Shown: piece by piece, positions 20,763 to 49,297 of the stretch | Numbering within the stretch: the first letter of the stretch is position 1 | Layout of the letters: each line of letters starts with the position of its first letter | NCBI GenBank assembly: GCA_039714075.1 | Contig: JBDLKA010000004.1 | Span: 3,087-67,086 of the forward strand | Origin: Candidatus Krumholzibacteriota bacterium | Lineage (GTDB): Bacteria; Krumholzibacteriota; Krumholzibacteriia; LZORAL124-64-63 | Length of the DNA stretch: 64,000 nt | Direction: 5' to 3' | Notes under the pieces: generated by a model | The model's database searches: none | Told to the model about the DNA's origin: nothing | The model's input: the letters and a program-made list of their open reading frames with translations, nothing else | Position numbers and translations under genes: made by a program

Positions 20763-23093
20763 CTACTCGTCCCCCTTGTGTTCCGCCAAACCCTTCAATC
20801 CCGCCATCTCAAGCCCCTCCATCAGGTGGTCGGTCAAAGCGACCGTCATGGCGTGACGTTCAATCAATTCCCCGCGAATCTCACCGACAGGCCGAGCCCA
20901 CAGCGTGAGCATCTCGTCCAGCGCTGGCCCAGCATCCCCGGAACGGCCGAGTTGCCCGTAGGTTGCGGCAAGATAAAGCGGGCCGCGAAAGTCACCGCCA
21001 CCCAAATCAACATCCCTCAATTCAGTCAGGGCCTGTTCGTGTCGCCCGTGTCGATAGTGGTCCAGGAAAAAGGGCGTCCTTATCCAGCCAGGGGGATTCG
21101 GATCAAGTTCGATCGCTCTGCGCACCATCGGCAGGCTGTGTTCGAAGTCCTCCAACTGGGCAAGGAAGAACCCGAACATGGCCAACCACATGGTGTCGTT
21201 CGGGTTCAGGTCGATCGTCCGGTAAGCTTCGATCTTGGCGCGTTCATAATCCCCGCTGGTGAAATGGGTGAGAGCCATGGCTCCGTGGGCCACATGGTTC
21301 CCCGTGTCGAGCCGTACCGCCTTTTCGGCAAGCTCCAGCGCCCGTTCGAGAGCATCATATTCGTCCGAACGCTCGTTCCAGCGATGGTGGGTTTCCTCGG
21401 CATATATGTAGGCCAGCCAGGCCAGGCCGTCAGCGTAGTCGGAGTCGTCTCCGATCACACGTTCCAGGCAATTACGCGCCGCCAGATGATTTTCCGGTGT
21501 GTGTACATGCAGGTATTCGTACGTCCGCAGGACGCAATCATAACTGTCCAGACTCGCCGGAGGTTTACGTCTGGAACCGGGCAGTCCCGCCCTGGTCAGG
21601 GCTCCGTACGATCCGGCGATCGCGCTGACGACCTGTTGCGTCAACTCGTCCTGCAGCTCGAAAAGATTGGCTACCGTCAGATCACGCTCGTAGTTCGTTC
21701 CCCATATCAACCGCCTGTCGCCGGAATCGGAGAGCTGGACATTGACCTTGACCTGATTCCCTGCTTTGCGGACGCTTCCCTTCAACAGATAACGATTTAC
21801 AGGCAGGGTACCGGCCCGGCCAAGGTCTTCATCGCGATCCTCGTAGCTTTCCGTCGAACTGTGGGCGATCACGGTCAGCCTGCTGTAGCGAGAGAGCTCC
21901 GTGACGATATCCACGGTCAGTCCTTCGCTGAAGTACTTCTGATCCGTATCCCCACTGGCATTGGTGAAGGGCAGAATGTCGATCGTCGGACCTCTCGAAG
22001 AGGTCTGTTGGACACCTGCGTCAATCCCCTTTTCTGGAGCAGTGTCTGCCGGGGTTGCGTCTCGCCCGGACAGCCCCTTCAGCAGAATCACCGCCACCAC
22101 CGCGGTCAGCAACACCCCGGCCACTCCCCACAGGCCCACTCGGAGCCGGTCCGGGCCGGCAGCAACCGGTGGCGGGGTCACGGCGGTCATGCCTGCGGAC
22201 GAGTCCCGCTGCATTCGCTTCAGATCGCTCCGCAGTTCGGCTGTGCTCTGGTAGCGCAGCTCGGGATCCTTCTCGAGAGCCTTGTTGACGATGCGCTGCA
22301 ACTCGGGCGGGACCTCCCGGTTGAGCTCCACCGGCGCCGTCGGCGCCCGGTTTAGGATAGCGTCGAACATGGCCGCGGACGTGTTCCCCGCGAAGGGGCG
22401 CCGCGCCGTGACCATCTCGTACAGAACCACGCCCAAAGAGAAAATGTCGGTCCGGTTGTCGAGGTCCTTACCCAAGGCCTGCTCCGGTGACATGTACGAC
22501 ACCGTGCCCACCACCGCCCCCGGAGTCGTCATGTCGAGCGCGGTCATGGTGGCATCGTCGAGTCCCGGCTCCGGCGTTGCTCCGGACGCGAGCTTGGCCA
22601 GCCCGAAATCCAGCACCTTGGCCTGGCCCCGGTCGGTAACGAAGATATTGGCCGTCTTGATGTCCCGATGAATGATCCCCTTGGCGTGAGCGGCGTCCAG
22701 CGCATCGGCGATCTGGAGGGTGAGATCGACCGCTGACTCGATCGCCAGGGGTTGGCCGCCGATGTGTTGCTGAAGGGCCTGCCCCTCCAGCAGTTCCATG
22801 ACGATGAACCGCCTGCCTTCCCACTCGCCGATGTCGTAAATGGAGCAGATGTGGGGGTGGTTCATCGCCGAAGCGGCGCGGGCCTCGCGAATGTGACGAT
22901 CGACATTCTGTGGTTTCGTGGCCACCTCGTCGGGAACGAATTTCATGGCGACGTTGCGCCCAAGACGCGTGTCCTGGGCCTTCCACACCACACCCATCCC
23001 GCCTTCGCCGATCTTCTCGATCAGGCGGTAGTGCTGTATGGTTTGACCAGACTGGATGGACACGAATTTTCTCCCCCTGGTCGTCCCGACCAT
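20763..23093 (-). CDS. Eukaryotic-like Ser/Thr protein kinase with a single TM and a periplasmic TolB-N-like plus TPR-like sensor domain, 776 aa (or 766 aa from the GTG at 23063)
   Basis: The kinase domain is identical to the downstream paralogue over its first ~157 aa. The periplasmic part shows an [17 protein letters not shown] motif followed by TPR-like helices. A GGGGGAG RBS precedes the GTG at 23063. Confidence 0.9.
22181..23063. repeat. Direct repeat copy B (5' kinase-domain coding region of the tandem Ser/Thr kinase genes)
   Basis: See copy A. Includes the RBS region, and divergence begins immediately upstream of the start codons. Confidence 0.8.
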
Positions 23094-23272
23094 CCCAGAG
23101 CATGATATTCCGCTCGAAAGTGGTATTTCGAGCTCGATTCATATCATATCATACTAATATGTATTTGTTAAGAAAGGGGCGCTATGCACTCCGACTGGCC
23201 GATTTGAGACATTTTTGATATTAATTGGTGGGTTCCAGGCGTTACCGCTCATTCCTGAATTCTGGAGACCCT

Positions 23273-25972
23273 ATGCAATCCGGTCAAACCCTTGCGCACT
23301 TCACCCTCGTGGAAAAGATCGGCTCCGGAGGGATGGGTGAAGTCTACCGCGCCACCGACGCCAAGCTGGGCCGGGACGTGGCCCTCAAGATCCTTCCCTC
23401 CGAATTGAGCGGCGACCCCGAGCGCGAAACCCGCTTTCATCGGGAAGCCCGCGCCCTGGCCAGCCTTCAGCATCCCAACGTGGCCTCGGTGTACGGTTTT
23501 GAAGAAGTGGACGGGATCCGCTTTCTGGTCATGGAACTGATTTCGGGCTCGGAACTAACCGTACGGATGAAAGAAGGTCCCATCCCGGTCGAGGAAACCC
23601 TGGACATCGCCCGCCAGATTGCCGCGGGCCTGGAGGCCGCCCACGAAAACGGCATCGTTCATCGTGACCTCAAACCGGCCAACATCATGGAAACCGAAGA
23701 CGGCGAAGTGAAAATCCTGGATTTCGGATTGGCCCAGGCCTGGTTCGGCGAGGACGACACCCAGCATGAGTCCGCCACGTCCCCGACCATGACCGCGGCC
23801 ATGACCCAGGCCGGCGCCATCCTGGGTACGGCGGCCTACATGAGCCCCGAGCAGGCCAGGGGCGCGGGTGTCGATCGGCGCACCGACATCTGGGCTTTCG
23901 GAGCGATCCTTTTTGAAATGCTGACCGGCAAGCAGCTCTTCAAGGGCGAAACCATCAGCGACACCCTGGCGGCCGTTCTCCGCAAGGAACCCGCCTGGGA
24001 TTCCCTGCCCGTAGACGAAGCTCCCGAGCTTTGCCGGTTGATCGAACGTTGCCTGGAGCGCAATCCCAAGCAGCGTCTGCGCGACATCGGCGAGGCCCGC
24101 ATCTTTCTGCAGGACGGCGGGGCCAGCATATCCAATTTTAGTTTTTCCCAGCTGGGCATGGACGCGGCGCCGGCGGAGTCCGCGCGCGCGAAAACCCCGG
24201 TTCCCCTGTTGGCGATTCTGGCTCTGGTATGCTTGTCGGTTGGCACGGTCCTGGGATGGAAGATTGTCGCCCAACCGAAGCCCGCTCCCCTGCTGCACAC
24301 CATGATCCCCGCGCCCAAGGATGCTGATTTCGATCTCAGGAGCCCGGCCCCGGGTCCGGCCGCAATCTCTCCTGACGGGACCAAGATGGCCTTTACGGCC
24401 GTGGATGAATCGGGAACCTCCCAGCTGCATCTGCGACACCTGGACAAGGGCGAGTCGGTCGTTCTGTCGGGCACCGTGGGCTCGGCCTACCCCTTCTGGT
24501 CACCCGACAGCGAGTTCATCGGGTTCTTCGAGCCCAATGCGGGGAAACTCAAGAAGGTGGCGGCGGCCGGCGGGCCCCCCGTCACCTTGTGCACCGCGCC
24601 CAACGGCAAAGGGGGATCCTGGAACAGCCGGGGAGAAATCATCTTTGCTCCCAATCACAACGGCGGGATCTTCAAGGTCCCGGACATCGGGGGGGCGCCT
24701 GTCCAATTGACGACCCTGGACCCGGACCATGATTCCCACCGGCACCCCCGCTTCCTTCCTGGGGGCACAAATTTTATTTTCACCGGTCGCGCCCTTAGCG
24801 GAAACATCAACAGCATATTCCTGGCCTCAACGGACACGGCCATTGCACCTAGAATAATTTCCGAATCGCAGACCAATGGGGACTTTGTCAACGGCAACCT
24901 GCTGACTGTCCATGAGGGCGTTTTGATGGCCACTCCGTTTACACCGGACCAGGAGAAGGTGACCGCGGGTGCGACCCCGTTGGTGGAAAACATCCTGAAT
25001 ATTCAGGGAGCCGCGGTATCTGTTTTCAGCCCCTCACCGACGGGCATGCTTGTCTTTCAGACGGGAGTCTCCATCAATGTGGGACAAATCATTTCCTGGG
25101 TGGAAATCGAAAAGGGGGTCGTGGAACCTCTAGGTGAACCCGGTCAGGTTTTTCATCCCTTTATTTCCCCGGACGGGAGTCAGGCTCTGCTTGAAGTGCG
25201 CAATGCGTCCAATGAAGGTACGGACCTGTGGCTTTTGGATCTGGCCACGGGTTTGCGGACACGGTTCACGTTTGCCGCGGGCGACGAAAAACGCCCCTGC
25301 TGGTCGCGTACAGGAAAAGACGTGTTCTACGAATCAGTTGAAAACAACTCCTTCCGGATCATGCAGCAACCGGTGGAGGGACAGGGCGGCGCCGCCATCA
25401 TTCTTGAATCCGACCGGGAAATCGCGCCTTCCAGCGTGGATCCCGAAGACAAGTTCCTATTGGTCGATTTCGAACGGGAGGACGGCAATTTTGAACTCCG
25501 CCGGATCACCCTGGAGCCCGGTCTGGACGAAATGGTCACCCTGGCCACTGCGCCTGACGCCAATCTGGGCGGTGGTGAGTATTCGCCGGACGGTCGCTGG
25601 ATCGCCTATCACACCGAAAGCGCTTCCGGATGGGATATCTTCGTGATCGCGGCCGAAGGTGGAGCGCGCAAGTGGCAGGTGACAACCGACGGTGCTGTAT
25701 ATCCCAAATGGGCAACAGGCGGAACGGAATTGTGGGTCAGCACATTCAGCGGAGATCTGCGCGTGTATTCCGTGGACGGTACCGGGCAGACCTTCCGCGT
25801 GGGGAACTTTATCCAGACCCCGATTAACATCGGCCCGGGCCCGAGTGGCAGTTTCTATGACCTGCACCCCGACGGCTTGCGGGTTCTCCAGACCGGAATG
25901 GATCCGGCTTTCCGTTCCGAAGTGTCCCATCTTCACCTGGTCACGGATTGGAAACGGGGGCTTGCCCAATAG
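23273..25972 (+). CDS. Eukaryotic-like Ser/Thr protein kinase with a single TM and a periplasmic TolB-like beta-propeller, ~900 aa
   Basis: The ORF runs 23225..25972 from a TTG. The likely ATG start is at 23273 (MQSGQTLAHF, aligning with the paralogue starts). Motifs GSGGMGEVYRA, HRDLKPANIM, DFGLAQ. Divergent from the tandem kinase pair, about 50% identical in the kinase domain. Confidence 0.9.
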   Translation: MQSGQTLAHFTLVEKIGSGGMGEVYRATDAKLGRDVALKILPSELSGDPERETRFHREARALASLQHPNVASVYGFEEVDGIRFLVMELISGSELTVRMKEGPIPVEETLDIARQIAAGLEAAHENGIVHRDLKPANIMETEDGEVKILDFGLAQAWFGEDDTQHESATSPTMTAAMTQAGAILGTAAYMSPEQARGAGVDRRTDIWAFGAILFEMLTGKQLFKGETISDTLAAVLRKEPAWDSLPVDEAPELCRLIERCLERNPKQRLRDIGEARIFLQDGGASISNFSFSQLGMDAAPAESARAKTPVPLLAILALVCLSVGTVLGWKIVAQPKPAPLLHTMIPAPKDADFDLRSPAPGPAAISPDGTKMAFTAVDESGTSQLHLRHLDKGESVVLSGTVGSAYPFWSPDSEFIGFFEPNAGKLKKVAAAGGPPVTLCTAPNGKGGSWNSRGEIIFAPNHNGGIFKVPDIGGAPVQLTTLDPDHDSHRHPRFLPGGTNFIFTGRALSGNINSIFLASTDTAIAPRIISESQTNGDFVNGNLLTVHEGVLMATPFTPDQEKVTAGATPLVENILNIQGAAVSVFSPSPTGMLVFQTGVSINVGQIISWVEIEKGVVEPLGEPGQVFHPFISPDGSQALLEVRNASNEGTDLWLLDLATGLRTRFTFAAGDEKRPCWSRTGKDVFYESVENNSFRIMQQPVEGQGGAAIILESDREIAPSSVDPEDKFLLVDFEREDGNFELRRITLEPGLDEMVTLATAPDANLGGGEYSPDGRWIAYHTESASGWDIFVIAAEGGARKWQVTTDGAVYPKWATGGTELWVSTFSGDLRVYSVDGTGQTFRVGNFIQTPINIGPGPSGSFYDLHPDGLRVLQTGMDPAFRSEVSHLHLVTDWKRGLAQ

Positions 25973-26053: not shown

Positions 26054-27925
26054 CTATGCCTGGACCTTCTTCCGGGTCGCCAAAGACACCACGACCAGCG
26101 TCAGGAAACTGAGCGGAATGGAGATGATGCCGGGTTGCCCCAGGGGATGCCAGGCGGCCTCGGCGGTGAGTCCGTAGGGGCCCGCGAACATGGCCGGACC
26201 GGTCAGGATGATTCCCAGCGCCGCGACGATACCCACGGTGATGGAGGCGACAATGCCCGCCGCCGTGGTCTTCTTCCAGAACAGGAGCATGAGGATGGCG
26301 GGCAGGTTGGCCGACGCAGCCACCGCAAAGGCCCAGCCCACCAGGAAGCTCACGTTCACCCCGCGGAACACGATACCCAGGATGATGGCCACGATGCCCA
26401 CCGCGAAGGCGGCGATCTTGCCGGCGCGAACCTTCTCCTTCTCACTCAGGTTCATGCCGCCGAAACGGTCCATGAGGTCATGGGCCACCGCGCCCGAAGC
26501 GGCCACGATCAGGCCGGCCACCGTACCGAGCACCGTCGCGAAGGCGATGGCCGAGATGATGGCGAAAAGCACCCCGCCGAACGACATGGCCAGCAGCGGC
26601 GCCGACATGTTGTTGTCCGCCGGGTTCACCGTGCCGCTGGTGGCCGCGCCCAGACCCATGAAAAGGGTCAGGACGTAGAAGAAACCGATGGCGGCAATCG
26701 CCACGATGGTCGACTTCCGGGCACAGGCCGGGCTGGGAACCGTATAATAGCGGATGAGGATGTGCGGCAACGCGGCGGTGCCGAAGAAAAGGGCCAGCAT
26801 CAGGGAAATGAAGTTCAGCTTCTGCCAGCCCGTTTTCACCTTGAACTTCGCGCCGGGTTTCATTTCCTCGGTTCCCGAAACGGTCTTGGGGTAATACACG
26901 CTGTATTTTGCACCGTCTTCGTCGAACACGGTCTTCTTGTGCCACTGCTCGATCCGCGTATCGGGGTGGGTCAGGCGGGCCAGGAAACCGGCCGGGCCCA
27001 GTGAGCCGGTGCCCCGCGCGGCTTCTTCCTCGTTCATGCCGCCGATCGCCTTGATCCGGCCGACCGGATTCAGCAGTCCGTCGGGCTTGCCGTTGACCAG
27101 GGACCCGCTACTCCACTGGGCCTGCCAAAGAGTGCCGTCGGCATCCTTTTTCCACCACGAAACGACGCCTTCGTGGGAGAACTTCAGCAAATCGCCGACC
27201 GTGTGCTTCAGAAGGTAGCCCTGACCGGCCAACTCCACCTCGGTGGACTGTTCCGGAATATTGAGCAGGGCCTGCCCTTCGGCATCCTTCAGGCTCGGTG
27301 GCTCGGTACTCAAACCGCGCACCATGACCGAGACCACCAGAATGGTGGAAAAGATCAGCAACAGGCCGCCCTTGAGGAACTGGACGTAGGTGGTGGAAGT
27401 CATGCCCGCGGTGGAAACAATGGCGATCACTATCGCACCGACGATGATCACGCCCACCCAGTGGGGCAGGCCGAGCAGGGGTTCGACAAGGGAACCGGCG
27501 CCGTTCATCTGGGGAATGAGGTAGCAGATGGAAACCACCAGGGTGGAAATCGCGGCGGCCAGCTTGATGCCGCGGCTGTCGAATTTTGCATCCAGGGCGT
27601 CGGTGAAGGTGAATTTTCCCATGCGCTTCATGGGCTCGGCCACCACGAAGAGCGCCACGACCCAGCCGGCCAGATAGCCGATGGAGTATAGGAAGCCGTC
27701 GTACCCGAGGGTGGCGATCATCCCGCAGATGCCCAGGAAAGACGCGGCCGACAGGTAGTCGCCCGCGAAGCTGATGCCGTTGACAGCCCAATGGATTTGT
27801 CCGCCCGCGGCGTAGTACCCGGAGGCTGACTTCGCCTTGCGCGCAAAAAAGAAGCTCAGGTAGAGCACCATCAACACGAAGAGCGCAAAGATGACGATGG
27901 ACAGGGGAGTTCCATGCAGATTCAT
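26054..27925 (-). CDS. actP: Cation/acetate symporter ActP-like (sodium:solute symporter family) with a ~150-aa hydrophilic insertion, 623 aa
   Basis: SSF family topology and motifs. Translationally coupled (ATGA overlap) to the upstream DUF485/YjcH gene, the canonical yjcH-actP arrangement. Confidence 0.85.
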   Translation of the reverse strand: MNLHGTPLSIVIFALFVLMVLYLSFFFARKAKSASGYYAAGGQIHWAVNGISFAGDYLSAASFLGICGMIATLGYDGFLYSIGYLAGWVVALFVVAEPMKRMGKFTFTDALDAKFDSRGIKLAAAISTLVVSICYLIPQMNGAGSLVEPLLGLPHWVGVIIVGAIVIAIVSTAGMTSTTYVQFLKGGLLLIFSTILVVSVMVRGLSTEPPSLKDAEGQALLNIPEQSTEVELAGQGYLLKHTVGDLLKFSHEGVVSWWKKDADGTLWQAQWSSGSLVNGKPDGLLNPVGRIKAIGGMNEEEAARGTGSLGPAGFLARLTHPDTRIEQWHKKTVFDEDGAKYSVYYPKTVSGTEEMKPGAKFKVKTGWQKLNFISLMLALFFGTAALPHILIRYYTVPSPACARKSTIVAIAAIGFFYVLTLFMGLGAATSGTVNPADNNMSAPLLAMSFGGVLFAIISAIAFATVLGTVAGLIVAASGAVAHDLMDRFGGMNLSEKEKVRAGKIAAFAVGIVAIILGIVFRGVNVSFLVGWAFAVAASANLPAILMLLFWKKTTAAGIVASITVGIVAALGIILTGPAMFAGPYGLTAEAAWHPLGQPGIISIPLSFLTLVVVSLATRKKVQA

Positions 27926-28254
27926 GCGATTTCCTCCCCGCCGACGGACCTGCCGGCAAGTTCGTTTTCCTTACCGGTACACTTGTGGTTGTAGATGAGG
28001 GCCATCACCAGAGCCAGGACGATCAGCCCCATCCCGTAGACAACGGCGAGGTTCAAACCCATGAAGACGATGACCTGCATGACTTTGCCCTCGGCCACAA
28101 CGTTGGCCAGGACAAAACCCACGTACACGACGCAGTAGATGAGGAACATCACTACGCCCAGGCGAGTCTTGTAATTGCTCGCCGGATCAGGTCCGGATTC
28201 GGGGGCGGGTCCCTGGTGCATGACTTCCTCCTGGGGAAGGGGGCCGGGGCTCAA
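27922..28254 (-). CDS. yjcH: DUF485 family inner membrane protein (YjcH-like), 110 aa
   Basis: Two TM helices, ~110 aa, with a 4-nt overlap onto the ActP start. This is the characteristic partner gene of actP. Confidence 0.8.
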   Translation of the reverse strand: MSPGPLPQEEVMHQGPAPESGPDPASNYKTRLGVVMFLIYCVVYVGFVLANVVAEGKVMQVIVFMGLNLAVVYGMGLIVLALVMALIYNHKCTGKENELAGRSVGGEEIA

Positions 28255-28464
28255 GGACCGCTACGTGCGGCCCATCAAGGGTGATGGCGACGAAATTAAT
28301 ACCCCGTTAAATGAATAACAAATAAAATGAAAGTTAAATTTCTGTTGGGTGTATTTTCTGGTTCCATAGGCAAATACGGAAATTGCTGGTGGGCAAACCG
28401 CCGGTTGGAAGGCTCCCCTGCATCGGTTATTATTACCAAGCATTTCTCCCGAACCGGAGTTCTC

Positions 28465-30528
28465 ATGAAGCGACTCGTCGTTCGCACCATCCTACCGGCC
28501 CTGCTGGCCATCGGACTCTTCTCGGGAGTCGTGTTCTTCTCCTTTCTTCCTTCCCTGAAAAGCTCCGTGATGGATCAGAAGCGGCTCATGATCCGCGAGC
28601 TGACCGAATCGTCCTGGAACATCCTGGCCCGCTTCGAGGCCGAGGAAAGAGCCGGCCGACTGACCCTCAATGAAGCCCAGACCGCCGCCGTGGAACAGAT
28701 CCGCAGCCTCCACTACGGTCAAGAAGGCAAGGACTACTTCTGGATCAACGACATGGAACCGCGGATGATCCTCCACCCCTACCGCACCGATCTGGAGGGC
28801 GAGAGCCTGTCCCGGTTCGCCGATCCCCACGGCAAGCTCATCTTCGTCGAGATGGCCGCGGTCGTGAAGAGTGACGGGGCGGGCTACGTGAACTACATGT
28901 GGCAGTGGAAGGACGATCCTGATCGCATCGTGCCGAAGCTGTCCTACGTGAAGGGGTTTTCGCCCTGGGGCTGGATCATCGGAACCGGCGTCTATACCGA
29001 CGACGTCGATACCGAGGTAGGATTGGTGACCAGCCGCCTGCAGGCCGCAGCACTGCTGATCCTGGCCATGGTATCGCTCCTGATGGTCATCCTTCTGCGG
29101 GCCAGTTTCCAGGCCGAGCGCGGGCGTTTGCGGGCAGCGGCCGCTCTGCGAGGGTCCGAGGAAAAATACCGCTCCCTGGTCGAATCGGCCGGTGAGTCGA
29201 TTTTCATGTCCATCGGCGGCGAGGAGCTCTTCGCCAACGCGAGCATGTTGAGGATGGTGGGCTACAACCGGGAGGAATTCGCGGCCCTCGATGTTGCCGA
29301 TCTGGTGCGGCCCACGGCGGCGGAACTGGAGAGCGGCCGGCGTTCCTGGCAGACGGTCATGGACGGCATGACGGCGCCCACGAGGTACGAGGCCGAATTG
29401 ATCGACCGCGACGGCCGGACCATCCGGGCCATGATCACCCTGTCGCGCATCGTGGTCCAGGGAAGGGTTGGATTCATGGCTGTGGTCACGCGATTGGCCA
29501 AACCGCGGGAACTCGACCTCATGACGACCGAGACCGCCGAGGATCTGGCCGCCGCCAACCGGCGCATGGCGACCATGGCCAGCCTCATGATGAGTCACGA
29601 TGCCGAGGCGATGCCCGTGAGCCGCATGCTTTCGGAGAATGCCGATGCCGCGGTCCGCAAAGGCATAGAATTGGCCGTTGCCGAGTTGGGCCCACCTCCC
29701 CTCCCCTTCGAGGTCATGCTCCTGGGCAGCCTGGGCCGGGCCGAGGTCAGCCTTCTGGCAGATCAGGACCATGCCATCATCTACCCGGACACCGAAGACG
29801 AAAAAACCGTGGTTCAGGAATATTTCCTGGGCCTGGGGTCGCGGCTTTCGGAAATCCTCGACGCGGCGGGCTACCCGTTCTGCCCGGGCGGGATCATGTC
29901 GGGTGAGCCTCGCTGCTGCCAGTCGCTCTCGGGTTGGCGCCGGACTTTTTCCGGCTGGATCAACACTCTCGAGGCCGAAGACCTGTTGCAGGCCAAGATA
30001 TTTTTCGATTTTCGCGGCAGCCTGGACGAGATGAACCTCACTGGCGAACTCTGGGAGCACCTGCGGGCGGAAATATCCCGCCAGCCACGATTCCTCCACC
30101 TGTTGGCCCGCAGCGTGCTGATGTACGAACCCCCGTTGAAAGCTTTTGGCGGCTTCGCCCTGGAGGAACGCAAGGGTGACCGGGGGACCTTTGACGTCAA
30201 GGGAGTCCTGGCGCAGATCGTTGATCTCGTACGGCTCCGGGCGTTGCAGCACGGGATCATCGTCACCGGAACCCTGGACCGTCTCGAAGCGTTGTCGGCC
30301 GGCGGCCACCTGCGGGCCGAAACCGTCCGCGATACCGCCGCCGCTTTCCGCTTCCTCATGGGTCTTCGCCTGAATCACCAGGCGCGCCGGATCCTGGAAC
30401 GGCTCGAACCGGACAATCGGATCGATCCGGAGGCTCTCGATGAGGCGGCGCGCAAACAACTCAAGACGGTGTTCACGAACCTCAAGGCGTGGCAGGCGAC
30501 CCTGGACCACGAGTTCAAGGGGGTGTGA
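28465..30528 (+). CDS. Sensor protein: signal/TM, periplasmic sCache_2 domain, TM, PAS, then a DUF294 putative nucleotidyltransferase plus DUF294_C substrate-binding domain (687 aa)
   Basis: The ORF runs 28327..30528. The ATG at 28465 follows a GGAG RBS and begins a hydrophobic segment. Cache motifs YFWINDMEPRMILHPY, YVNYMWQWKDDP and GFSPWGWIIGTGVYTDDVD. PAS after the second TM. Nucleotidyltransferase motif LLGSLGRAEVSLLADQDHAIIY followed by a helical DUF294_C-like region. Confidence 0.75.
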   Translation: MKRLVVRTILPALLAIGLFSGVVFFSFLPSLKSSVMDQKRLMIRELTESSWNILARFEAEERAGRLTLNEAQTAAVEQIRSLHYGQEGKDYFWINDMEPRMILHPYRTDLEGESLSRFADPHGKLIFVEMAAVVKSDGAGYVNYMWQWKDDPDRIVPKLSYVKGFSPWGWIIGTGVYTDDVDTEVGLVTSRLQAAALLILAMVSLLMVILLRASFQAERGRLRAAAALRGSEEKYRSLVESAGESIFMSIGGEELFANASMLRMVGYNREEFAALDVADLVRPTAAELESGRRSWQTVMDGMTAPTRYEAELIDRDGRTIRAMITLSRIVVQGRVGFMAVVTRLAKPRELDLMTTETAEDLAAANRRMATMASLMMSHDAEAMPVSRMLSENADAAVRKGIELAVAELGPPPLPFEVMLLGSLGRAEVSLLADQDHAIIYPDTEDEKTVVQEYFLGLGSRLSEILDAAGYPFCPGGIMSGEPRCCQSLSGWRRTFSGWINTLEAEDLLQAKIFFDFRGSLDEMNLTGELWEHLRAEISRQPRFLHLLARSVLMYEPPLKAFGGFALEERKGDRGTFDVKGVLAQIVDLVRLRALQHGIIVTGTLDRLEALSAGGHLRAETVRDTAAAFRFLMGLRLNHQARRILERLEPDNRIDPEALDEAARKQLKTVFTNLKAWQATLDHEFKGV

Positions 30529-30533
30529 ATACC

Positions 30534-31274
30534 GTGACGCCACCGAGCGACGGCACCGTCCTTCTGGTCAGCGACATCCACTCGCACTATCACGTCATCG
30601 ACGCCCACATCACCCATGCCCGTGAAAAGCTCGGGCGCACCGTGGAACAGGTCCGTGTGCTGGGCGACTTCGGCCTGTTCGGGCCCAATCTCCACGACTT
30701 TTTCCGACGGGACGGCCGCCGTTTCTCGCTTCCGGTCGCCTTCATCGAGGGCAACCACGAGGACTTCCGGAATTTCGACGATCTGGTCCACGACTACGCC
30801 GATGTCGTGACCCATCTGCCCCGGAACTCGGTACATGATTTCGGTTCCGGGCGCTGGCTGTGCATCGGGGGCGCGCAGTATATGGACGCGTGGTCGACGC
30901 CGCCGGGCTGCGAGATCCGTGACCAGGACATCGCCCGGTGTTTGGAAAATCCGCCCGGGAGTATCGACATCGTCATCAGCCACGACTGCCCCACGAACAT
31001 CGGCGTGACAAGCGAGGCCGAATTCGGGCATCTCGGTCAGCCGGGGATCGCGGGCCTGGCCCGGGTTGCCGATCACCTGCGGCCGAAGTTGTGGTTCTTC
31101 GGCCATCATCACCGGTGGCACGATAACGAGAGCGGCGGAACCCGCTTCGTTGGTCTGCCCCAGAGTTGGCAGGGATACGTACTGCTCGGCGGTGCCGGAG
31201 AGCTGGATCTCGTGGAGCACGAAGTCGCTCTTCCGCGACGACCCGGGTGGTGGCGGTGGATCGGGTTGAAATAA
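30534..31274 (+). CDS. Metallophosphoesterase (calcineurin-like phosphoesterase), ~246 aa
   Basis: The ORF runs 30489..31274. The GTG at 30534 lies 5 nt after the upstream stop, with AAGGGGGTG acting as an RBS. MPP motifs VSDIHSHY, GNHED, GHHH. Confidence 0.8.
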   Translation: MTPPSDGTVLLVSDIHSHYHVIDAHITHAREKLGRTVEQVRVLGDFGLFGPNLHDFFRRDGRRFSLPVAFIEGNHEDFRNFDDLVHDYADVVTHLPRNSVHDFGSGRWLCIGGAQYMDAWSTPPGCEIRDQDIARCLENPPGSIDIVISHDCPTNIGVTSEAEFGHLGQPGIAGLARVADHLRPKLWFFGHHHRWHDNESGGTRFVGLPQSWQGYVLLGGAGELDLVEHEVALPRRPGWWRWIGLK

Positions 31275-31420
31275 GGGCCCGACCGATTGGGCCCGACCGC
31301 CAATCCCCATAACACACTATATCTTATTACGTTGCAAAACCGGACTTAGGGCGTTATCGTTGTCGGACACCGTAACAAATCCATCAGGGACATCCTTCTG
31401 CGCATCCGACGGACAACCTC

Positions 31421-38885: not shown

Positions 38886-41885
38886 TCAACGCACCCAGGT
38901 CACCTTGCGCACCATGTGTTCGTCCGTGCGCGGTCCCTTGACCGAAAGCCGCACCAGGTACTGGCCGCTGGCGACCGTCCGGCCCTCGCCGTCACGTCCG
39001 TCCCAGACGGCCACGTGCGTTCCCTCGGGCGCTTCGGTGCGCATCACGGTCCGGATCCTCCGGCCCCGGATGTCGAAAACCTCCAGTGAAGCCACGGCCC
39101 GTTCCGGCAGCGAGAACGAGAATTGTGCCTGACTCGATGCCGGGTTGCCCGTCGCCAGAGCGAACCGGACACGCGTGATTCCCGACGAGGACGGATCGTC
39201 CACACCGCTGACGATGTCTTCCGGGCACTCCCAGCAGCCGGTGCGTTGCGGATCGTGTCCCTGCATGGCCCAGGTGGCCCACGACGAACCCGGAGCGTTG
39301 TTCAGATCGAAGATCATCAGCTGCGATTCATCCAGGACGACGAGTTCGGTGCTTCCGTCCAGATCCAGATCGCCCATGGCCGCGGTCTGGTGCACGTAGC
39401 TGGGGGTCGCTCGGGGCCACCCGCCCAGCAGGTTGCCGAAGTTGTCCCACGCCCGGATCTTCTTGTCCCGGGCCCCGATGATGACATCGCCCGAAGCCCC
39501 TTCGATCTCGCCCATGATGGGATCCGCGTAGATCCACCAGCCGACACCCGTACTGACGGGATATCCGACTGCGGAACCACCGTGATAATAGGCCAGATGG
39601 ACTTCGTAGTTCTGAGCCGCGAATGCGATCTCTGGCTCACCTGTACCCAGGCAATTGGCCAGCGCGGCGCTGGACAACGGGTAAGTGTCACCGGTGTAAT
39701 AGGGCCAGCCTGGAAGTTCCGTGCCGTCGTCGTCCAGAGCGTGCATGTACCCGTTGACCGTGGGCACCAGGACTTCCACGTCTCCGTCGCTGTCCAGGTC
39801 GCCCAGGGTCGGTACGTCACTGATGGTGGTCGGCATGGTTTCGGCGAACGACACCAAGCCCGACGGATGGTAGGACGCCACCCAGTGGGTACCGGCGATG
39901 ACCAGCTCGTTCAGGCCGTCGCCGTTCACATCACCGATGGCCGCCGGGTGCAGGAGAGGCTCAACCGTGGCCGGGAAGAAGAACCCCGGCGGGACCCGGC
40001 CGCTGTAATTGAAGGCTTCGGCATGGCTGCCTGCACACACCGCGACCACGCGGTGGTAGGGCGGGCCGAGGGTGCCGATGCTGACGTGGGCCTCTGCGGA
40101 ATCGATGGCGCTGATCGGCCAGCCTGGAATCAGCGTGCCCGAGGGGTCGTACAGGAAGATCTGCCCGTTTACGGCGCCGACCGCAATCTCGGGCGATTCG
40201 TCACCGTTCAAGTCGCCCACGGCCACGGGACTGCCGGACAGGGTCACCCCGGGCACCACCGGCCAGCCGGCCACCGGAGTACCATCGTGGTGCAGGGCCA
40301 CCACCTGATCGCTGTCGTTGCTGAAAATAATTTCCAGATCGCCGTCACCGTCGAGATCGACTACCGCCGGAGCGGTCTTGGGCGGGTGCAGCAGTTCAAT
40401 GGGTGAATCCGGCTCCTCGACCGGCCAACCGGGATCGTTGAACCACTCCGCGTCGAACAGCATCTCGCGACCGCTGACTTCATAGTGGTATGACCAGAAA
40501 GCACCGATCCGTTCACCCTGGGCAAGGTTCAGGGCGGCGGGATAACAATTGACGGAAACGATGCCCTCGTGCGCACCATCCGTGAAAACCTGGGGATCCG
40601 ACCAGACCGTCGGCGCGGAAGCAGCGGCCCTTATGATCTCGGTTCCATGTCCGAAATTGTTCATGATCCAGGTATCGGTACTGGACTGCCAGACCAGACC
40701 CCGCACGTCCCCGTACCCCAAATCAAAAGACGTGGGCCAGGTGGTGCCCTGGTCAGCGGAGGCACGGATTTCGATATGGGAACTTGTGCCGGGTGGGTCG
40801 AAATCGTCCGTGATCATGACTTCGTCCCCTGTTTGCGAGGCCGCGATAAGGGGAGCCCGGTTTTCGAAACCGTCCGAGGTCGAGGACAGGGCAAGAACGG
40901 TGCCCCAGGAGCCGGAACCGCCGCTGGCGAAGGAATCGGCTCGCCGGTACCGGAAGGCCGAGTCGAAGGCGCCGTTGGTGGATATGAAAGACCAGACGAC
41001 GTGAACCTTGGAGTTGAAGCCGTAGGCGACACGGGGATTCCAGTAATCGCGATCAGCCACAGCCAGCTCGGCGATTGTGTATTCGGTTTCCCAACTGTCG
41101 CCCTGGTTCGTGCTGCGGGCGAACCAGATCTTGTCGTGGTCGATGCCCCGGCTCCGGGCCGTCAAGTAAAGGTAGTAGCTGCTGAAGTTTGGGGCATCTG
41201 TCGCCATATGGGGAGTCCAGACGTGTTCCCCCGTCGATTCGATGGCGGCGACCTCGGTGAACACGGGGACCGCTGCCGACAGCTCCGCGTGAACGACGAC
41301 GATATATTCGTTGCCCACGGCAGGTGTTTTTCGACAAGCGACGAAGCAGCGATCCTGGGAGCCCTCCGCAATAAGAATTTCAGCATTCCCGTACCGCACC
41401 GACGGACTGGGGTCCGCTATGGAACCCCACAGGGGCCAGGTCAGTCCGCCGTCGGTCGAACGATGGATATCGATCTGGTCGTTCGACACGGCGTTGGGCA
41501 CACCCTGGGCAATATACCCGTACCCGTTGCTGTCGAATGCCGTGGACGGGTATTCGGGAATATCTGCAAACGGTATGGCATACATCAGCACGTCGTCGCC
41601 ACCGATTTGTTCATGGGTCGTGGCTTGTTTATCGGCGCCAAACGATGTCACCATGCCATCGTGTTGAGAAGTCCCCGATTCCCGGACTTCGATCCGGGTC
41701 CGACCGGATCCAGGTATCACGGGTTGCAGGTCGGGGGGGAAAATCTTCACGCTCGAGCCGTCATCCGGCGGAGGTGGGGTTGGTGTACGTTCCAATTCAG
41801 CCGAGACCGGGACCACCGTGCACACCAGCAAGGCAAAAACCGGCAGCCATATCCGTAACGATGATTGAATTAGCGGGTTCTTCAT
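38886..41885 (-). CDS. Large secreted protein: N-terminal BNR/Asp-box (sialidase-like) propeller region, FG-GAP repeats, and a T9SS type-A C-terminal sorting domain, 999 aa
   Basis: Signal peptide. Asp-box repeats (STDGGLTWP, SADQGTTWP, STNQGDSWE). FG-GAP/calcium-binding repeats (DLDGDGDLE, GDVNGDGLNE, GDLDSDGDVE). C-terminus ..GQYLVRLSVKGPRTDEHMVRKVTWVR. Confidence 0.8.
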   Translation of the reverse strand: MKNPLIQSSLRIWLPVFALLVCTVVPVSAELERTPTPPPPDDGSSVKIFPPDLQPVIPGSGRTRIEVRESGTSQHDGMVTSFGADKQATTHEQIGGDDVLMYAIPFADIPEYPSTAFDSNGYGYIAQGVPNAVSNDQIDIHRSTDGGLTWPLWGSIADPSPSVRYGNAEILIAEGSQDRCFVACRKTPAVGNEYIVVVHAELSAAVPVFTEVAAIESTGEHVWTPHMATDAPNFSSYYLYLTARSRGIDHDKIWFARSTNQGDSWETEYTIAELAVADRDYWNPRVAYGFNSKVHVVWSFISTNGAFDSAFRYRRADSFASGGSGSWGTVLALSSTSDGFENRAPLIAASQTGDEVMITDDFDPPGTSSHIEIRASADQGTTWPTSFDLGYGDVRGLVWQSSTDTWIMNNFGHGTEIIRAAASAPTVWSDPQVFTDGAHEGIVSVNCYPAALNLAQGERIGAFWSYHYEVSGREMLFDAEWFNDPGWPVEEPDSPIELLHPPKTAPAVVDLDGDGDLEIIFSNDSDQVVALHHDGTPVAGWPVVPGVTLSGSPVAVGDLNGDESPEIAVGAVNGQIFLYDPSGTLIPGWPISAIDSAEAHVSIGTLGPPYHRVVAVCAGSHAEAFNYSGRVPPGFFFPATVEPLLHPAAIGDVNGDGLNELVIAGTHWVASYHPSGLVSFAETMPTTISDVPTLGDLDSDGDVEVLVPTVNGYMHALDDDGTELPGWPYYTGDTYPLSSAALANCLGTGEPEIAFAAQNYEVHLAYYHGGSAVGYPVSTGVGWWIYADPIMGEIEGASGDVIIGARDKKIRAWDNFGNLLGGWPRATPSYVHQTAAMGDLDLDGSTELVVLDESQLMIFDLNNAPGSSWATWAMQGHDPQRTGCWECPEDIVSGVDDPSSSGITRVRFALATGNPASSQAQFSFSLPERAVASLEVFDIRGRRIRTVMRTEAPEGTHVAVWDGRDGEGRTVASGQYLVRLSVKGPRTDEHMVRKVTWVR

Positions 41886-43192: not shown

Positions 43193-44620
43193 TCACCTCA
43201 ACAGTATCGCCTTCCTCGTCTCGACCTTCCCCCCGATATCCACGCGGAAGAAGTATTCGCCCGAGGGTACCGCACGGCCGGATGAATCACGCCCCTGCCA
43301 TTCGACGGAATGTTTGCCGGCCGCGTATTGCCGGTCAGCCAGATTCGCGATCAGGCGTCCCCGAATATCGTAGACCAGCACGCGAACCTGATGCGTCTGG
43401 TCGGTGGAAAAAGAGATGGCCGTGGTGGGATTGAAGGGATTCGGCGTGATCCGGATGTCCTGATCGCCGAACAGACCCTTGTTCCCGCCCCACGCGGCCT
43501 CGATCATGTCCGCCCCGCTGATCGGCTGACCGTCATACGTTTCCCCGGTCAGCGAAACCTTGGTGTCGCCGCACTGGATACCGGAATCGGGAACGCGGAA
43601 GTGGAACAGCAGGTCCAGGTCGCCGTCTCCATCCACATCCGTTTCGTGACGGACAGGACCTTTAAGGTTGGCGTGAGCTTCTGCAGTTTCAGCGGGGCCG
43701 AAAAGAACGGTGGCATGATCGACGTTGGTCGCATCGAATTCAGCCGTCGTGAGCAGGGCCACCGGCACAACATGGTTGGCGTGAGGGTTGCAATTGACCC
43801 GGTTTTCATCACTATCGGGTTTCACATCAATGCCGACGTCGATGGTTGCGGGCGCACACTGCGGAATCTGCACCTGGTCCCAGGTCGGGTCGAAATCATC
43901 ACTGTCCGGGGTGCTGCCGCGGGTGGCGTCATTTCCGTTGAACGAGCTGTCGAAAGCGGTCTGACCGGAGCCCTCATCAAACTCCCAGCAGGCCACCAGA
44001 CCCGCTTCGTCGCCATCCAGTTTGGAACACATCATCTGCTGGATCTGCTCCGGCGTGCGCGCGACCTCCCAGAGACGGACCTCATCGATCGAGCCGATGA
44101 TCCCGTCGACGAAATTGCCGAAACGCCCAATCATCACGTCCCTGTCGTACGCGTGGATTTGACCGGACGCTGCCCTGCTGCTCACTTCCACGCCATCCAC
44201 GAAAAGGCGCATCGCCGTTCCGTCATAAGTTCCGGCGACATGCACCCACTGGCCATAGGGCAAGACATCGAGTGGGGACCTCAGCAAGTGGCGCGTACCG
44301 TTGATCGCCAAATCGAACAAAAACTCCTGCGACCGTGAGTTGATGCCCAAATGGTACTGGTAATAGGGAGCGCTGTGACTGGTGAAGGGCTTTTCAATGA
44401 GGGGGCAATTGCCCAGATCCCAGAATTGTCCGGGGATCATGCACCACACTTCGATGGTAATGGCATCGGCGGGATCGAGGGTCTCGTTTCCCGCGGCGTG
44501 CAGATAGTCTCTCCCGTCAAACTGGAGCACATGGTTTGCACCGGCGGCATCCGAACCTGAAAAAAGGAACACGGCGAAAAGAAAAATCAGGAAAGCGCTT
44601 CGGCGCAGATATGGATACAT
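43193..44620 (-). CDS. Secreted LamG / concanavalin-A-like lectin domain protein with a T9SS type-A C-terminal sorting domain
   Basis: The ORF runs 43193..44674. The signal peptide MYPYLRRSAFLIFLFAVFLFSGSDAAG starts at 44620, after a GGGGG RBS. Laminin_G_3-like segment (LQFDGRDYL..GQWVHVAGTYDGTAMRLFVDGVEV..DEVRLW). C-terminus ..GEYFFRVDIGGKVETRKAILLR. Confidence 0.8.
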   Translation of the reverse strand: MYPYLRRSAFLIFLFAVFLFSGSDAAGANHVLQFDGRDYLHAAGNETLDPADAITIEVWCMIPGQFWDLGNCPLIEKPFTSHSAPYYQYHLGINSRSQEFLFDLAINGTRHLLRSPLDVLPYGQWVHVAGTYDGTAMRLFVDGVEVSSRAASGQIHAYDRDVMIGRFGNFVDGIIGSIDEVRLWEVARTPEQIQQMMCSKLDGDEAGLVACWEFDEGSGQTAFDSSFNGNDATRGSTPDSDDFDPTWDQVQIPQCAPATIDVGIDVKPDSDENRVNCNPHANHVVPVALLTTAEFDATNVDHATVLFGPAETAEAHANLKGPVRHETDVDGDGDLDLLFHFRVPDSGIQCGDTKVSLTGETYDGQPISGADMIEAAWGGNKGLFGDQDIRITPNPFNPTTAISFSTDQTHQVRVLVYDIRGRLIANLADRQYAAGKHSVEWQGRDSSGRAVPSGEYFFRVDIGGKVETRKAILLR

Positions 44621-44856
44621 GGTCAACCCCCGAACAATTTGAATGGAATATGAAGCAGAACCCGATGTTGCCAAACCGAAGGGTGATTATACCTCATATC
44701 CTACCGAAAGTAAATGAGTTGGAAGGGAAAACCCGATTGATATTTCCGGCTGGAACTCGAGACATGGACTTGCCGGCAGACCCGGTTTATAGTTAAATTG
44801 GATCTTTTTACTCTTGGTTGTCCGGTTTTCAGAACACCTTCCCAAGGAGACGAACA

Positions 44857-49104: not shown

Positions 49105-49297
49105 CTTGGTCTCCCCTTGTCCTTGCTGTGGATGCTCCCAACCATGCCTGCTCTCATCAAACACCATCCGGAGTCGGATTAAGTTGCAGGGGATTGAGGA
49201 TTTGGCAGGGAAGTGTTTGTGGGGGGGGTTTCTTCCGGCCGCCAAACCCCCGCGGGCTTGGCGGCCGGATGGAATGAAAATCAAAAAGAAACGCGGA

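Follow-up and report, generated by a model that had tools for sequence, protein, structure and literature searches.

A predicted transmembrane carboxylate sensor with a putative DUF294 nucleotidyltransferase module and its conserved metallophosphoesterase partner beside an ActP-like symporter operon in a Candidatus Krumholzibacteriota bacterium

We examined two adjoining genes of a Candidatus Krumholzibacteriota bacterium, one encoding a transmembrane sensor joined to a putative nucleotidyltransferase (gene A) and the other a predicted phosphodiesterase (gene B). The two genes appear inseparable in evolution, and the genomic evidence argues strongly that they form a functional pair. All positions are given within the window, the 64,000-nt stretch of contig JBDLKA010000004.1 that was analysed. 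We propose that A and B are a two-gene module of sensor and antagonist that belongs functionally with a DUF485/ActP-like symporter and acts as a reversible nucleotidylylation switch, a reading to which we give about an even chance of being correct. DUF294/COG2905 is a large and phylogenetically wide family without an assigned biochemical function. New here are a DUF294 version whose input can be read from its sequence, with a pocket identical to that of known acetate/propionate/pyruvate sensors; placement of the DUF294 output, on structural grounds, in the GlnE/DrrA protein adenylyltransferase class; and comparative evidence for a transferase-phosphodiesterase pairing that involves three unrelated hydrolase folds and two fusions. 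A vague association thereby becomes a testable model, in which a sensor-controlled write/erase cycle of nucleotidylylation would regulate monocarboxylate uptake.

Gene A (28465..30528, plus strand, 687 residues) starts at an ATG with GGAG 8 nt upstream; a longer reading frame from 28327 was considered and rejected, the homologues being about 687 residues long. Its stop codon ends at 30528 and gene B (30534..31274, plus strand, 246 residues) opens with a GTG at 30534, leaving a gap of 5 nt, or an overlap of 4 nt if an alternative in-frame GTG at 30525 is used. Directly after the gene B stop codon is a GC-rich hairpin, GGGCCCGACCGATTGGGCCC (31275..31294, plus strand), with no T-run after it on that strand. 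It is probably the end of the A-B transcription unit, and the next gene begins 146 nt on, at 31421. On the minus strand, back-to-back with the pair, are genes for a small DUF485 (YjcH-like) membrane protein (27922..28254) and a 623-residue ActP-like cation/monocarboxylate symporter of the SSF family (26054..27925). This arrangement of the pair and the yjcH-actP-like genes had been described in the first-pass annotation and was confirmed by the ORF positions and Pfam matches. Chance was excluded because of the E-values and because the arrangement is kept in dozens of genomes. The divergent intergenic region (28255..28464) includes, on reading its sequence, an AT-rich stretch in a genome of 61% GC. 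It also contains a promoter-like site, TTGGAA-17-TATTAT, at 28405-28433 and oriented toward gene A (one site in a consensus scan against 0.3 expected), a weak hint that this may be the gene A promoter. The flanks of the window encode Ser/Thr kinases, an ABC-F ATPase, a Na+/H+ exchanger and secreted repeat proteins. We detected no Rfam family, no tRNA and no acs gene in the window.

A Pfam scan of gene A recovered each domain that had been read from the letters, all above their cutoffs. The sCache_2 domain (PF17200; residues 36-185, 28570..29019) scored 130.7 bits against a gathering cutoff of 25 (E 5.7e-38). It is followed by a cytoplasmic PAS domain (residues 233-341, 29161..29487) that was matched by PAS (28.2 bits, cutoff 22.6), by PAS_9 (29.8 bits, also above cutoff) and by TIGR00229 (42.7 bits). 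The C-terminal module (29563..30516) consists of DUF294 (PF03445; residues 367-503, E 1.3e-36, 126 bits against a gathering cutoff of 21) and DUF294_C (PF10335; residues 541-684, E 2.2e-37, 128.5 bits against 22.5). The hydropathy profile shows two hydrophobic stretches, near residues 8-30 and 192-214, on either side of the Cache domain, and we conclude that gene A encodes a transmembrane protein whose Cache domain would lie outside the cytoplasm between two helices. The N-terminal layout of COG2905, a cNMP-binding domain with tandem CBS domains, was absent from gene A in the Pfam scan, and TM-sCache_2-TM-PAS stands in its place. More than 110 homologues of about 687 residues span 100% of the query, and the closest, at about 90% identity, comes from a Krumholzibacteriia MAG. 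A search of public assemblies for the exact gene A sequence gave no record.

The periplasmic domain is closely related to sensors of known ligand. The top NCBIfam match of the region was MctS (E 8.3e-22), and among PDB sequences it matched 4k08, an acetate-bound crystal (E 2.5e-39), and PscD, 5g4y (E 3.6e-37). The ligand of PscD is contacted by Y90, W92, H103, F126, Y143, W145 and K156 (PMC5062169), and all seven residues are identical in gene A (Y91, W93, H104, F127, Y144, W146 and K158). These pocket residues are kept in 117/117 homologues, with W93 changed to F in eight. The chemoreceptors PscD, McpP and Adeh_3718 and the MctS-type kinases have the same seven-residue pocket in periplasmic domains that are approximately 42-45% identical to that of gene A. 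Comparison with these sequences strongly supports the view that gene A has in full the acetate/propionate/pyruvate/glycolate pocket seen in PscD and Adeh_3718, so that the earlier suggestion of C2/C3-carboxylate sensing is strengthened by the seven identities, with ligand binding predicted. Whereas these chemoreceptors and kinases signal through an MCP domain or a histidine kinase module, the output of gene A is a putative nucleotidyltransferase.

The motif quoted for this module in the first-pass annotation, GSLGRAEVSLLADQD, corresponds to residues 421-435 and gives the catalytic pattern G421-x11-D433-x-D435 (D433-Q-D435). Residues G421, S422, D433, D435, D515 and R517 are invariant in 117/117 sequences, the catalytic aspartate pair among them, and D515, in FFDFR, is likely to be the third carboxylate. 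In a structural comparison the expected nucleotidyltransferase fold was present, and the fold together with the helical domain superposed on GlnE and DrrA. DUF294_C stands where GlnE and DrrA have their protein-substrate-binding helical domain and is putatively a helical substrate-binding domain as well. With these results, we conclude that the cytoplasmic end of gene A shares its fold and catalytic residues with the GlnE/DrrA nucleotidyltransferase class. No enzymatic activity of any DUF294 protein was reported in the literature searched, where matches mostly concerned DUF2946.

The structural results also bear on what the transferase might modify. One alternative is that it acts on itself or on a small molecule, such as a carboxylate/acyl-adenylate-type intermediate or an antibiotic-like compound, with gene B disposing of the product as a phosphoesterase of housekeeping or salvage type. 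Small-molecule nucleotidyltransferases scored far below protein-modifying ones against the gene A fold, and the position of DUF294_C argues against this explanation, as do the strict co-inheritance and the fusions described below, which do not suit a generic housekeeping partner; we regard it as quite improbable. A second alternative is a second-messenger module, in which the transferase would make a linear or cyclic (oligo)nucleotide able to diffuse and the partner would degrade it, comparable to GGDEF/EAL and cyclase/CpdA pairs. The fold was closest to GlnE/DrrA rather than to CD-NTases or OAS, and no receptor or effector gene was conserved beside the pair across the loci examined. PADLOC returned no match for gene A and a weak, partial one for gene B, and a synthase and a hydrolase co-translated from one operon would run a futile cycle unless they were differently regulated. 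Thus, we consider a second messenger unlikely, although less so than a small-molecule substrate.

Gene B had been described as a calcineurin-like metallophosphoesterase starting 5 nt past gene A, and both the family and the spacing held. It matched Metallophos (PF00149) with an E-value of 3.5e-10 and 41.1 bits against a cutoff of 21.5. The five metallophosphoesterase motifs, D14-x-H16, G44-D45, G73-N74-H75-E76, H150 and G190-H191-H192-H193, are intact in the predicted cytoplasmic protein and invariant in 25 homologues. Its nearest relatives were Dbr1, GpdQ, MPPED2 and Rv0805-type diesterases and not protein phosphomonoesterases, and we found no close structural relationship to the PPP-type Ser/Thr phosphatases PP1, PP5 and calcineurin. 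Modelling therefore places gene B in the phosphodiesterase, Dbr1-like branch, and we conclude that it encodes an intact binuclear-metal phosphodiesterase with predicted activity. Membership in an anti-phage defence system was considered and rejected, the PADLOC match of gene B being to PDC-S10 (E 2.5e-6) and confined to the metal-binding motifs.

We then asked how the pair is distributed. A metallophosphoesterase lies directly downstream of the transferase in every one of the 36 genome loci of the gene A clade, at gaps of -4 to +12 nt and down to 39% transferase identity, and the adjacency on which the pairing had been made to depend was therefore found in all homologous loci of the clade. The metallophosphoesterase family is tiny, and look-ups from its most divergent homologues (48-50% identity) placed all of them beside Cache-DUF294. 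The explanation that adjacency is meaningless, gene B being an unrelated phosphoesterase, can draw on nothing beyond the generic Metallophos match; it is opposed by the unbroken adjacency, by the company the family keeps in every look-up and by the displacement and fusion of partners in other lineages. The comparative data effectively refute it, and we give it almost no weight.

Among 80 genome loci of DUF294 transferases, the partner was a gene B-type metallophosphoesterase in 36, an unrelated metallophosphoesterase in two, an RNase_T/DEDDh exonuclease in 17, a separate PHP gene in six and, in two, a PHP domain that forms the N-terminal part of a fusion with the DUF294 protein. The partners other than the gene B type belong to more distant DUF294 loci. 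Clades of the transferase tree match the type of partner. One Cache-DUF294 clade had no detectable partner hydrolase; its members have a conserved N-terminal domain of approximately 145 residues that gave no Pfam, NCBIfam or PDB sequence match. Each of these hydrolase families has members that break X-O-P bonds so that the nucleotide left behind bears a 5'-phosphate, and by analogy the DUF294 partners may do the same. The earlier idea of a write and erase pair gained from this survey in that unrelated phosphoesterase folds displace one another and the partner is fused to the DUF294 protein in two loci, while the transfer, its substrate and the erasing stay at the level of prediction. Against the idea, DEDDh exonucleases and Dbr1-like enzymes are, to our knowledge, known to act on nucleic acids and not on protein-nucleotide adducts.

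The same partner families make it conceivable that the pair remodels RNA ends, with DUF294 adding untemplated 3' nucleotides to a symporter mRNA or small RNA and the partner trimming them as a 3'-5' exoribonuclease, thereby setting transcript stability and transporter expression. The partners belong to families best known as nucleases: the exonucleases are RNase_T/DnaQ proteins (NCBIfam PRK09146), the PHP partners are nearest to RNase RNM and pAp phosphatase, the gene B-type enzyme is nearest to the RNA debranching enzyme Dbr1, and mRNA degradation was speculated on by Henriquez et al. We nevertheless consider this explanation unlikely, to about the same degree as a second messenger, and favor nucleotidylylation.

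The genes around the pair connect it to carboxylate uptake. DUF485 and SSF genes adjoin it in 29/36 loci, and in some they are co-directional with A and B, apparently as one four-gene operon; in approximately 10-20% of loci the pair has no adjacent symporter. In the window, the symporter (Pfam SSF, E 9e-68) shares 41.6% identity with E. coli ActP along 486 residues. Its best NCBIfam matches were MctC and ActP, each under its equivalog cutoff, with 388 bits against 750 and 316.6 bits against 1099 for the ActP equivalog/subfamily models. An alignment to ActP revealed an insertion of about 135-160 residues (approximately residues 209-369) between TM6 and TM7, which matched no Pfam family, and the most fitting description of the protein is a relative of the ActP/MctC type that carries an additional loop domain. 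We considered the insertion as a cytoplasmic target domain and ruled this out, as helix alternation and the positive-inside rule would place it in the periplasm. The DUF485 protein (E 7.2e-09, 35.9 bits against a cutoff of 28) has two hydrophobic segments, and its gene overlaps the start of the symporter gene by 4 nt, an arrangement like that of E. coli. The real DUF485 start is likely the ATG at 28221, which is preceded by AGGAGG.

In the nucleotidylylation model, binding of a carboxylate in the periplasm would be relayed through TM2 and the PAS domain and alter nucleotidyltransferase activity. The transferase would attach AMP or UMP as a nucleoside 5'-monophosphate, or perhaps several in a short chain, to a hydroxyl of a cytoplasmic target, and gene B would hydrolyse the phosphodiester, free the 5'-NMP and reset the switch. 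The target would most likely belong to the carboxylate-uptake machinery, either the YjcH/ActP complex or a factor controlling it, and the mark would most likely be inhibitory, throttling the high-affinity symporter when external acid is plentiful. A more ambitious version is possible but rather doubtful: a one-component transmembrane system in which external acetate or pyruvate drives (poly)AMPylation/UMPylation of the YjcH-ActP complex or a gating factor, and a dedicated 5'-nucleotidyl-removing phosphodiesterase, interchangeably Dbr1-like metallophosphoesterase, PHP or DEDDh, erases the mark, the whole acting as a widespread post-translational brake that restrains secondary transporters (SSF, BCCT and others) in many phyla. 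If true, this would be the first function for DUF294/COG2905 and its exonuclease-like partners. Were the write/erase model itself confirmed, nucleotidylylation would join the outputs available to bacterial transmembrane sensors, and nuclease-like enzymes would be seen to serve as de-nucleotidylases.

The proposed switch follows the logic of GlnD, with nucleotidyltransferase, hydrolase and sensors, the HD hydrolase being swapped for another. GlnD unites a nucleotidyltransferase with a KNTase_C-type helical domain, small-molecule sensors and a metal-dependent phosphohydrolase for removal of the mark, and the GlnD-GlnK-AmtB output gates a membrane transporter. Its layout of writer and eraser in one polypeptide is reproduced by the PHP-DUF294 fusions. 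However, GlnD has HD and ACT domains, whereas gene A matched neither in Pfam, has an extracytoplasmic sensor and relies on a separate metallophosphoesterase as the putative eraser; a PII-like target, which had been suggested as something to look for nearby, was not found in the window. The resemblance is thus one of logic and not of membership. GlnE and Legionella DrrA/SidM share only 12-16% sequence identity with gene A, and neither has a transmembrane sensor. GlnE takes its mark off with a second nucleotidyltransferase domain, and the DrrA mark is cleared by the PP2C-like SidD, neither of which is a metallophosphoesterase, PHP or DEDDh enzyme like the DUF294 partners. MNT-HEPN pairs (MntA/HepT) are toxin-antitoxin systems and differ in having no sensor domains, dedicated hydrolase or transporter context.

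The first-pass annotation knew of no characterised Cache-DUF294 system; cytosolic DUF294 relatives have in fact been studied genetically in Pseudomonas, and the statement stands in that none has been characterised biochemically. P. putida PP_0354-PP_0353 and P. aeruginosa PA3233-PA3232 (COG2905) share the DUF294 and DUF294_C catalytic module with gene A, at 36-37% identity to the Pseudomonas loci compared (Pfam E 1e-48). These operons are tied to yjcH-actP and short-chain-acid metabolism, and in them the last 4 nt of the transferase gene are shared with the phosphoesterase gene. In contrast to membrane-bound gene A with its periplasmic sCache_2 and PAS domains, the Pseudomonas transferases are soluble, with cytoplasmic cNMP-binding and CBS sensors, as in relatives from Desulfobacterales, and their partner is a DEDDh exonuclease (RNase_T) rather than a metallophosphoesterase.

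[quoted passage not shown] On pyruvate, deletion mutants of PP_0353 (the hydrolase), yjcH and actP-I are impaired and the PP_0354 (transferase) mutant is not (PMC9927547; 10.64898/2026.09.07.749794), an asymmetry predicted by an inhibitory writer and a reactivating eraser. On propionate, growth is poorer in the PP_0353 mutant and in the PP_0354 mutant but not in the actP-I and yjcH mutants (10.64898/2026.09.07.749794); therefore, ActP cannot be the sole target, nor can the mark be purely inhibitory. We found no literature joining actP, an exonuclease, CBS and a nucleotidyltransferase beyond this P. putida work (PMC9927547; 10.64898/2026.09.07.749794), and the role of the Pseudomonas DUF294 members was still called unclear in the 2026 preprint (10.64898/2026.09.07.749794). 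In P. aeruginosa, PA3232-PA3235 are co-induced approximately 16-fold on propionate (PMC9765439). Cofitness in Shewanella and P. stutzeri is described between an "RNase T domain protein" and the DUF4212 and SSF symporter adjoining it, in ambiguous wording by which the phenotype could belong to the COG2905 or the RNase T gene (10.1101/072470); for Psest_0349 and Sama_1525 of Price et al., gene order in related operons suggests the RNase T gene rather than the DUF294 gene. The P. putida pair is located near glcB.

The locus contains two adjacent genes on the forward strand. Gene A (28465-30528, +) encodes a protein of 687 aa from an ATG start, with GGAG 8 nt upstream, and gene B (30534-31274, +) encodes a protein of 246 aa from a GTG located 5 nt past the gene A stop. 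An alternative in-frame GTG for gene B at 30525 would create a 4-nt overlap with gene A. Pfam searches identified four domains in gene A: sCache_2 (residues 36-185, E 5.7e-38), PAS (residues 233-341, above the gathering score), DUF294 (residues 367-503, E 1.3e-36), and DUF294_C (residues 541-684, E 2.2e-37). A hydropathy scan placed a transmembrane segment on either side of the Cache domain, at residues 8-30 and 192-214. Gene B matched Metallophos (41.1 bits against a cutoff of 21.5), and the two genes divergent from gene A matched DUF485 (27922-28254, -) and SSF (26054-27925, -). A mechanical open reading frame begins gene A at 28327; we ruled this start out because alignments to over 110 database homologues, each of roughly 687 aa, span 100% of the query from 28465. 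Because the ORF table, the Pfam matches, and the hydropathy scan agree, we conclude that the first-pass annotation described the gene order, domains, and coordinates accurately in every particular.

The Cache domain had been proposed to sense carboxylates. Its best matches among solved structures were Adeh_3718 (4k08, E 2.5e-39) and PscD (5g4y, E 3.6e-37), and PscD uses seven residues (Y90, W92, H103, F126, Y143, W145, and K156) to bind acetate, glycolate, propionate, and pyruvate (Brewster et al., PMC5062169). Dissociation constants for PscD lie between 10 and 400 uM. In a HMMER alignment, gene A was identical at all seven contacts (Y91, W93, H104, F127, Y144, W146, and K158). The pocket was also kept in 117 of 117 aligned family members, save for a change of W93 to F in eight. 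Identity of the whole pocket together with its conservation across the family therefore makes the prediction of a periplasmic C2/C3-carboxylate sensor well supported, in agreement with the proposal.

We modeled the transferase module (gene A residues 350-687) from an alignment of ten homologues and obtained a pLDDT of 85.2 and a pTM of 0.84. The motif G421-x11-D433-x-D435, as well as D515 and R517 of FFDFR, was invariant in 117 sequences, and thus the catalytic Asp pair attributed to DUF294 is present as D433 and D435. By its modeled fold, the enzyme belongs with nucleotidyltransferases that act on protein tyrosines, and its own substrate would putatively be a protein. A diffusible nucleotide signal in place of a protein mark seems improbable. 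In gene B, the five canonical metallophosphoesterase motifs were invariant in 25 homologues. The structures nearest to the gene B model (pLDDT 88.8) were aq_1956, CWF19L1, and TT1561, together with the phosphodiesterases Lmo2642, MPPED2, GpdQ, and Rv0805.

The same order, Cache-DUF294 followed directly by the phosphoesterase, was found around a 59%-identical gene A homologue and around the three most divergent gene B homologues (48-50% identity). We then used the transferase alignment to scan a set with a single genome for each GTDB species, obtained 80 loci, called ORFs in each, and classified them by phmmer/jackhmmer and Pfam. A member of the gene B family lay directly downstream in 36 of the 36 loci of the window's clade, which spans transferase identities down to 39% and is mostly Krumholzibacteriia, with others from Latescibacterota, Riflebacteria, and Verrucomicrobiota. 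Eighteen loci had a spacing of -4 nt between the genes, 23 a spacing of +2 to +5 nt, and 3 a spacing of +10 to +12 nt. The first-pass annotation had held that the paired system would fall if the phosphoesterase were never adjacent in homologous loci; with adjacency in all 36, that objection is therefore clearly removed.

The replaceability of the partner argues most strongly for a functional pair. In distant DUF294 loci, the neighbor is another kind of phosphoesterase. In Pseudomonas and Halothiobacillaceae, where the DUF294 proteins carry classical cNMP-binding and CBS sensors, an RNase_T/DEDDh exonuclease gene overlaps the 3' end of the DUF294 gene by 4 nt, and in Desulfobacterales the partner is a 720-aa PAS-RNase_T protein. 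A PHP-domain protein is encoded immediately upstream of the DUF294 gene in Actinomycetota and Anaerolineae, and in one locus each of Kiritimatiellia and Phycisphaerales (L062 and L055) the DUF294 protein itself carries PHP as an N-terminal fusion. Further PHP neighborhoods again had the order DUF485-SSF-PHP-[Cache-PAS-DUF294]. Two Bacteroidota loci have a different metallophosphoesterase upstream, without significant similarity to gene B (E 1.9). Across the 80 loci, the partner was a metallophosphoesterase of the gene B type in 36, another metallophosphoesterase in 2, RNase_T in 17, a separate PHP protein in 6, and a fused PHP domain in 2; the remaining 17 had none, of which four or five are cut by contig ends. 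Partner type tracked clades of transferase modules in a neighbor-joining tree. The partners come from three folds that are unrelated to one another and were recruited on five or more occasions. All of these folds carry out phosphodiester hydrolysis that leaves a nucleoside 5'-phosphate, and by established enzymology this common chemistry would be exactly what removal of a 5'-nucleotidyl group from a hydroxyl needs.

Two of these groups have further features. In Desulfobacterales (L049, L053, L054, L056, and L058-L061), the cluster reads Acs - SSF - [PAS-RNase_T, ~720 aa] - [cNMP-CBS-DUF294], so the hydrolase itself bears a PAS sensor domain, and the cluster is followed in several cases by a spore-photoproduct-lyase-like radical-SAM gene or a cytidylate-kinase-like gene. 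The single Cache-DUF294 clade without a nearby partner phosphoesterase (N-termini of its Cache-DUF294 proteins at L066 6441-6875, L072 6318-6750, L074, L075 6186-6620, and L077) has a strongly conserved cytoplasmic N-terminal domain of ~145 aa (MKLSxHADRTExLVGIRAEDIHKWIDGFFD...HRKFRHC...DDYDG), in which conserved His and Asp are abundant. This domain had no sequence match in Pfam, NCBIfam, or PDB; it may have a regulatory role or represent another hydrolase fused to the protein.

Of the 36 close loci, 29 have genes for DUF485 and an ActP-like SSF symporter beside the pair, either divergent, as in the window, or co-directional in what appears to be one operon (L004, L006, L016, and L040). In a minority of loci, the pair has no adjoining transporter. 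The window symporter shares 41.6% identity with E. coli ActP. Neighbors in other DUF294 clades were genes for other SSF subfamilies, Acs, BCCT, an amino-acid permease, or a Na+/Ca2+ exchanger. The cNMP-CBS-DUF294/RNase_T pairs of Halothiobacillaceae and Pseudomonas (L079, L081, and L085-L087) lie beside BCCT (betaine/carnitine/choline) transporters rather than SSF, an amino-acid permease-Usp fusion adjoins the DUF294 gene in L077, and L048 has the Na+/Ca2+ exchanger; the association may therefore extend to secondary transporters in general. The window symporter also contains a hydrophilic insertion of ~135-160 aa between TM6 and TM7 (residues ~209-369; 26819-27301, -), absent from E. coli ActP, without a Pfam match, and predicted to be periplasmic. 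Symporters adjoining the module elsewhere are similarly long (620-660 aa), so the insertion may be an extracytoplasmic domain particular to this transporter lineage.

The logic of the proposed switch is closest to that of GlnD, in which a transferase is joined to an HD hydrolase and sensor domains and which regulates AmtB via GlnK. Membership in the GlnD family is nevertheless excluded, because the HD domain, the ACT domain, and a PII protein are all missing. In the literature searched, we found no biochemical study of DUF294, but genetic data exist for soluble relatives. Growth on propionate induces P. aeruginosa PA3232-PA3235 jointly, by about 16-fold (PMC9765439). The P. putida operon of PP_0354 (cNMP-2xCBS-nucleotidyltransferase) and PP_0353 (RNase_T) is a direct target of MxtR/ErdR, a two-component system that responds to acetate, and depends on it strongly; in that species, growth on pyruvate is impaired by deletion of PP_0353, yjcH, or actP-I and not in the PP_0354 mutant, whereas growth on propionate is reduced in the PP_0353 and PP_0354 mutants and unaffected in the yjcH and actP-I mutants (PMC9927547; 10.64898/2026.09.07.749794). 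The 2026 preprint calls the function of PP_0354/PP_0353 unclear and considers protein modification "similar to ... uridylation of PII" possible (10.64898/2026.09.07.749794). Price et al. reported an "RNase T domain protein" adjoining a DUF4212+SSF lactate/alanine symporter and cofit with it; the wording is ambiguous between two genes, and the arrangement of related operons favors the hydrolase (10.1101/072470).

The pyruvate pattern, in which hydrolase loss resembles transporter loss and transferase loss is silent, is characteristic of an inhibitory mark that the transferase writes and the hydrolase erases, and we therefore propose a sensor/write/erase scheme for the window. The Cache domain would bind external acetate, pyruvate, or propionate, and the signal would be relayed via TM2 and PAS to the GlnE/DrrA-like transferase. 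The transferase would nucleotidylylate a cytoplasmic hydroxyl on a component of the uptake machinery, and the Dbr1-like phosphodiesterase encoded by gene B would take the mark off. We give an even chance to such carboxylate-controlled, gene B-erased nucleotidylylation of the uptake machinery. Against it, the propionate phenotypes misfit a pure "ActP-off" scheme, and one DUF294 clade lacks a partner. The known substrates of the partner families are moreover nucleic acids; remodeling of RNA 3' ends instead of a protein mark is an unlikely reading. MNT enzymes attach short chains of AMP to tyrosine, which makes it conceivable, under the protein-mark model, that a poly-nucleotidyl mark is trimmed by the exonuclease-like partners; such a mark would account for the recruitment of nuclease families.

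Taken together, the results confirm the observation and support the hedged write/erase reading first offered for the pair. We conclude that the pair does not stand alone but represents the membrane-bound, putatively carboxylate-sensing, metallophosphoesterase-partnered variant of a widespread, biochemically uncharacterised DUF294-plus-phosphoesterase module, already noticed in Pseudomonas. Three results go beyond the first-pass annotation, and we found none of them in the literature searched: the placement of the transferase by structure among protein adenylyltransferases, the identity of the carboxylate pocket, and the displacement and fusion of partners across folds.

Other genes in the window also drew our attention. 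Just upstream of the symporter, three large genes for Ser/Thr protein kinases follow one another (18072-25972), two with PD40 repeats (18072-20762, -; 23225-25972, +) and one with TPR repeats (20763-23093, -); similar Pkinase-TPR genes occur near the module in locus L001. Large secreted-type proteins with LVIVD, FG-GAP, and Laminin_G_3 repeats (4156-6450, 38886-41885, 43193-44674, 45937-49284, and 61066-63990, all -) each end in a FlgD_ig-like domain, and a further one (49298-51376) has Por_Secre_tail. These repeated C-termini suggest a common sorting signal in this Krumholzibacteriia-like genome. Finally, a 555-aa protein (56571-58238, -) joins an N-terminal FHA domain to a C-terminal histidine-kinase ATPase domain, an uncommon pairing.
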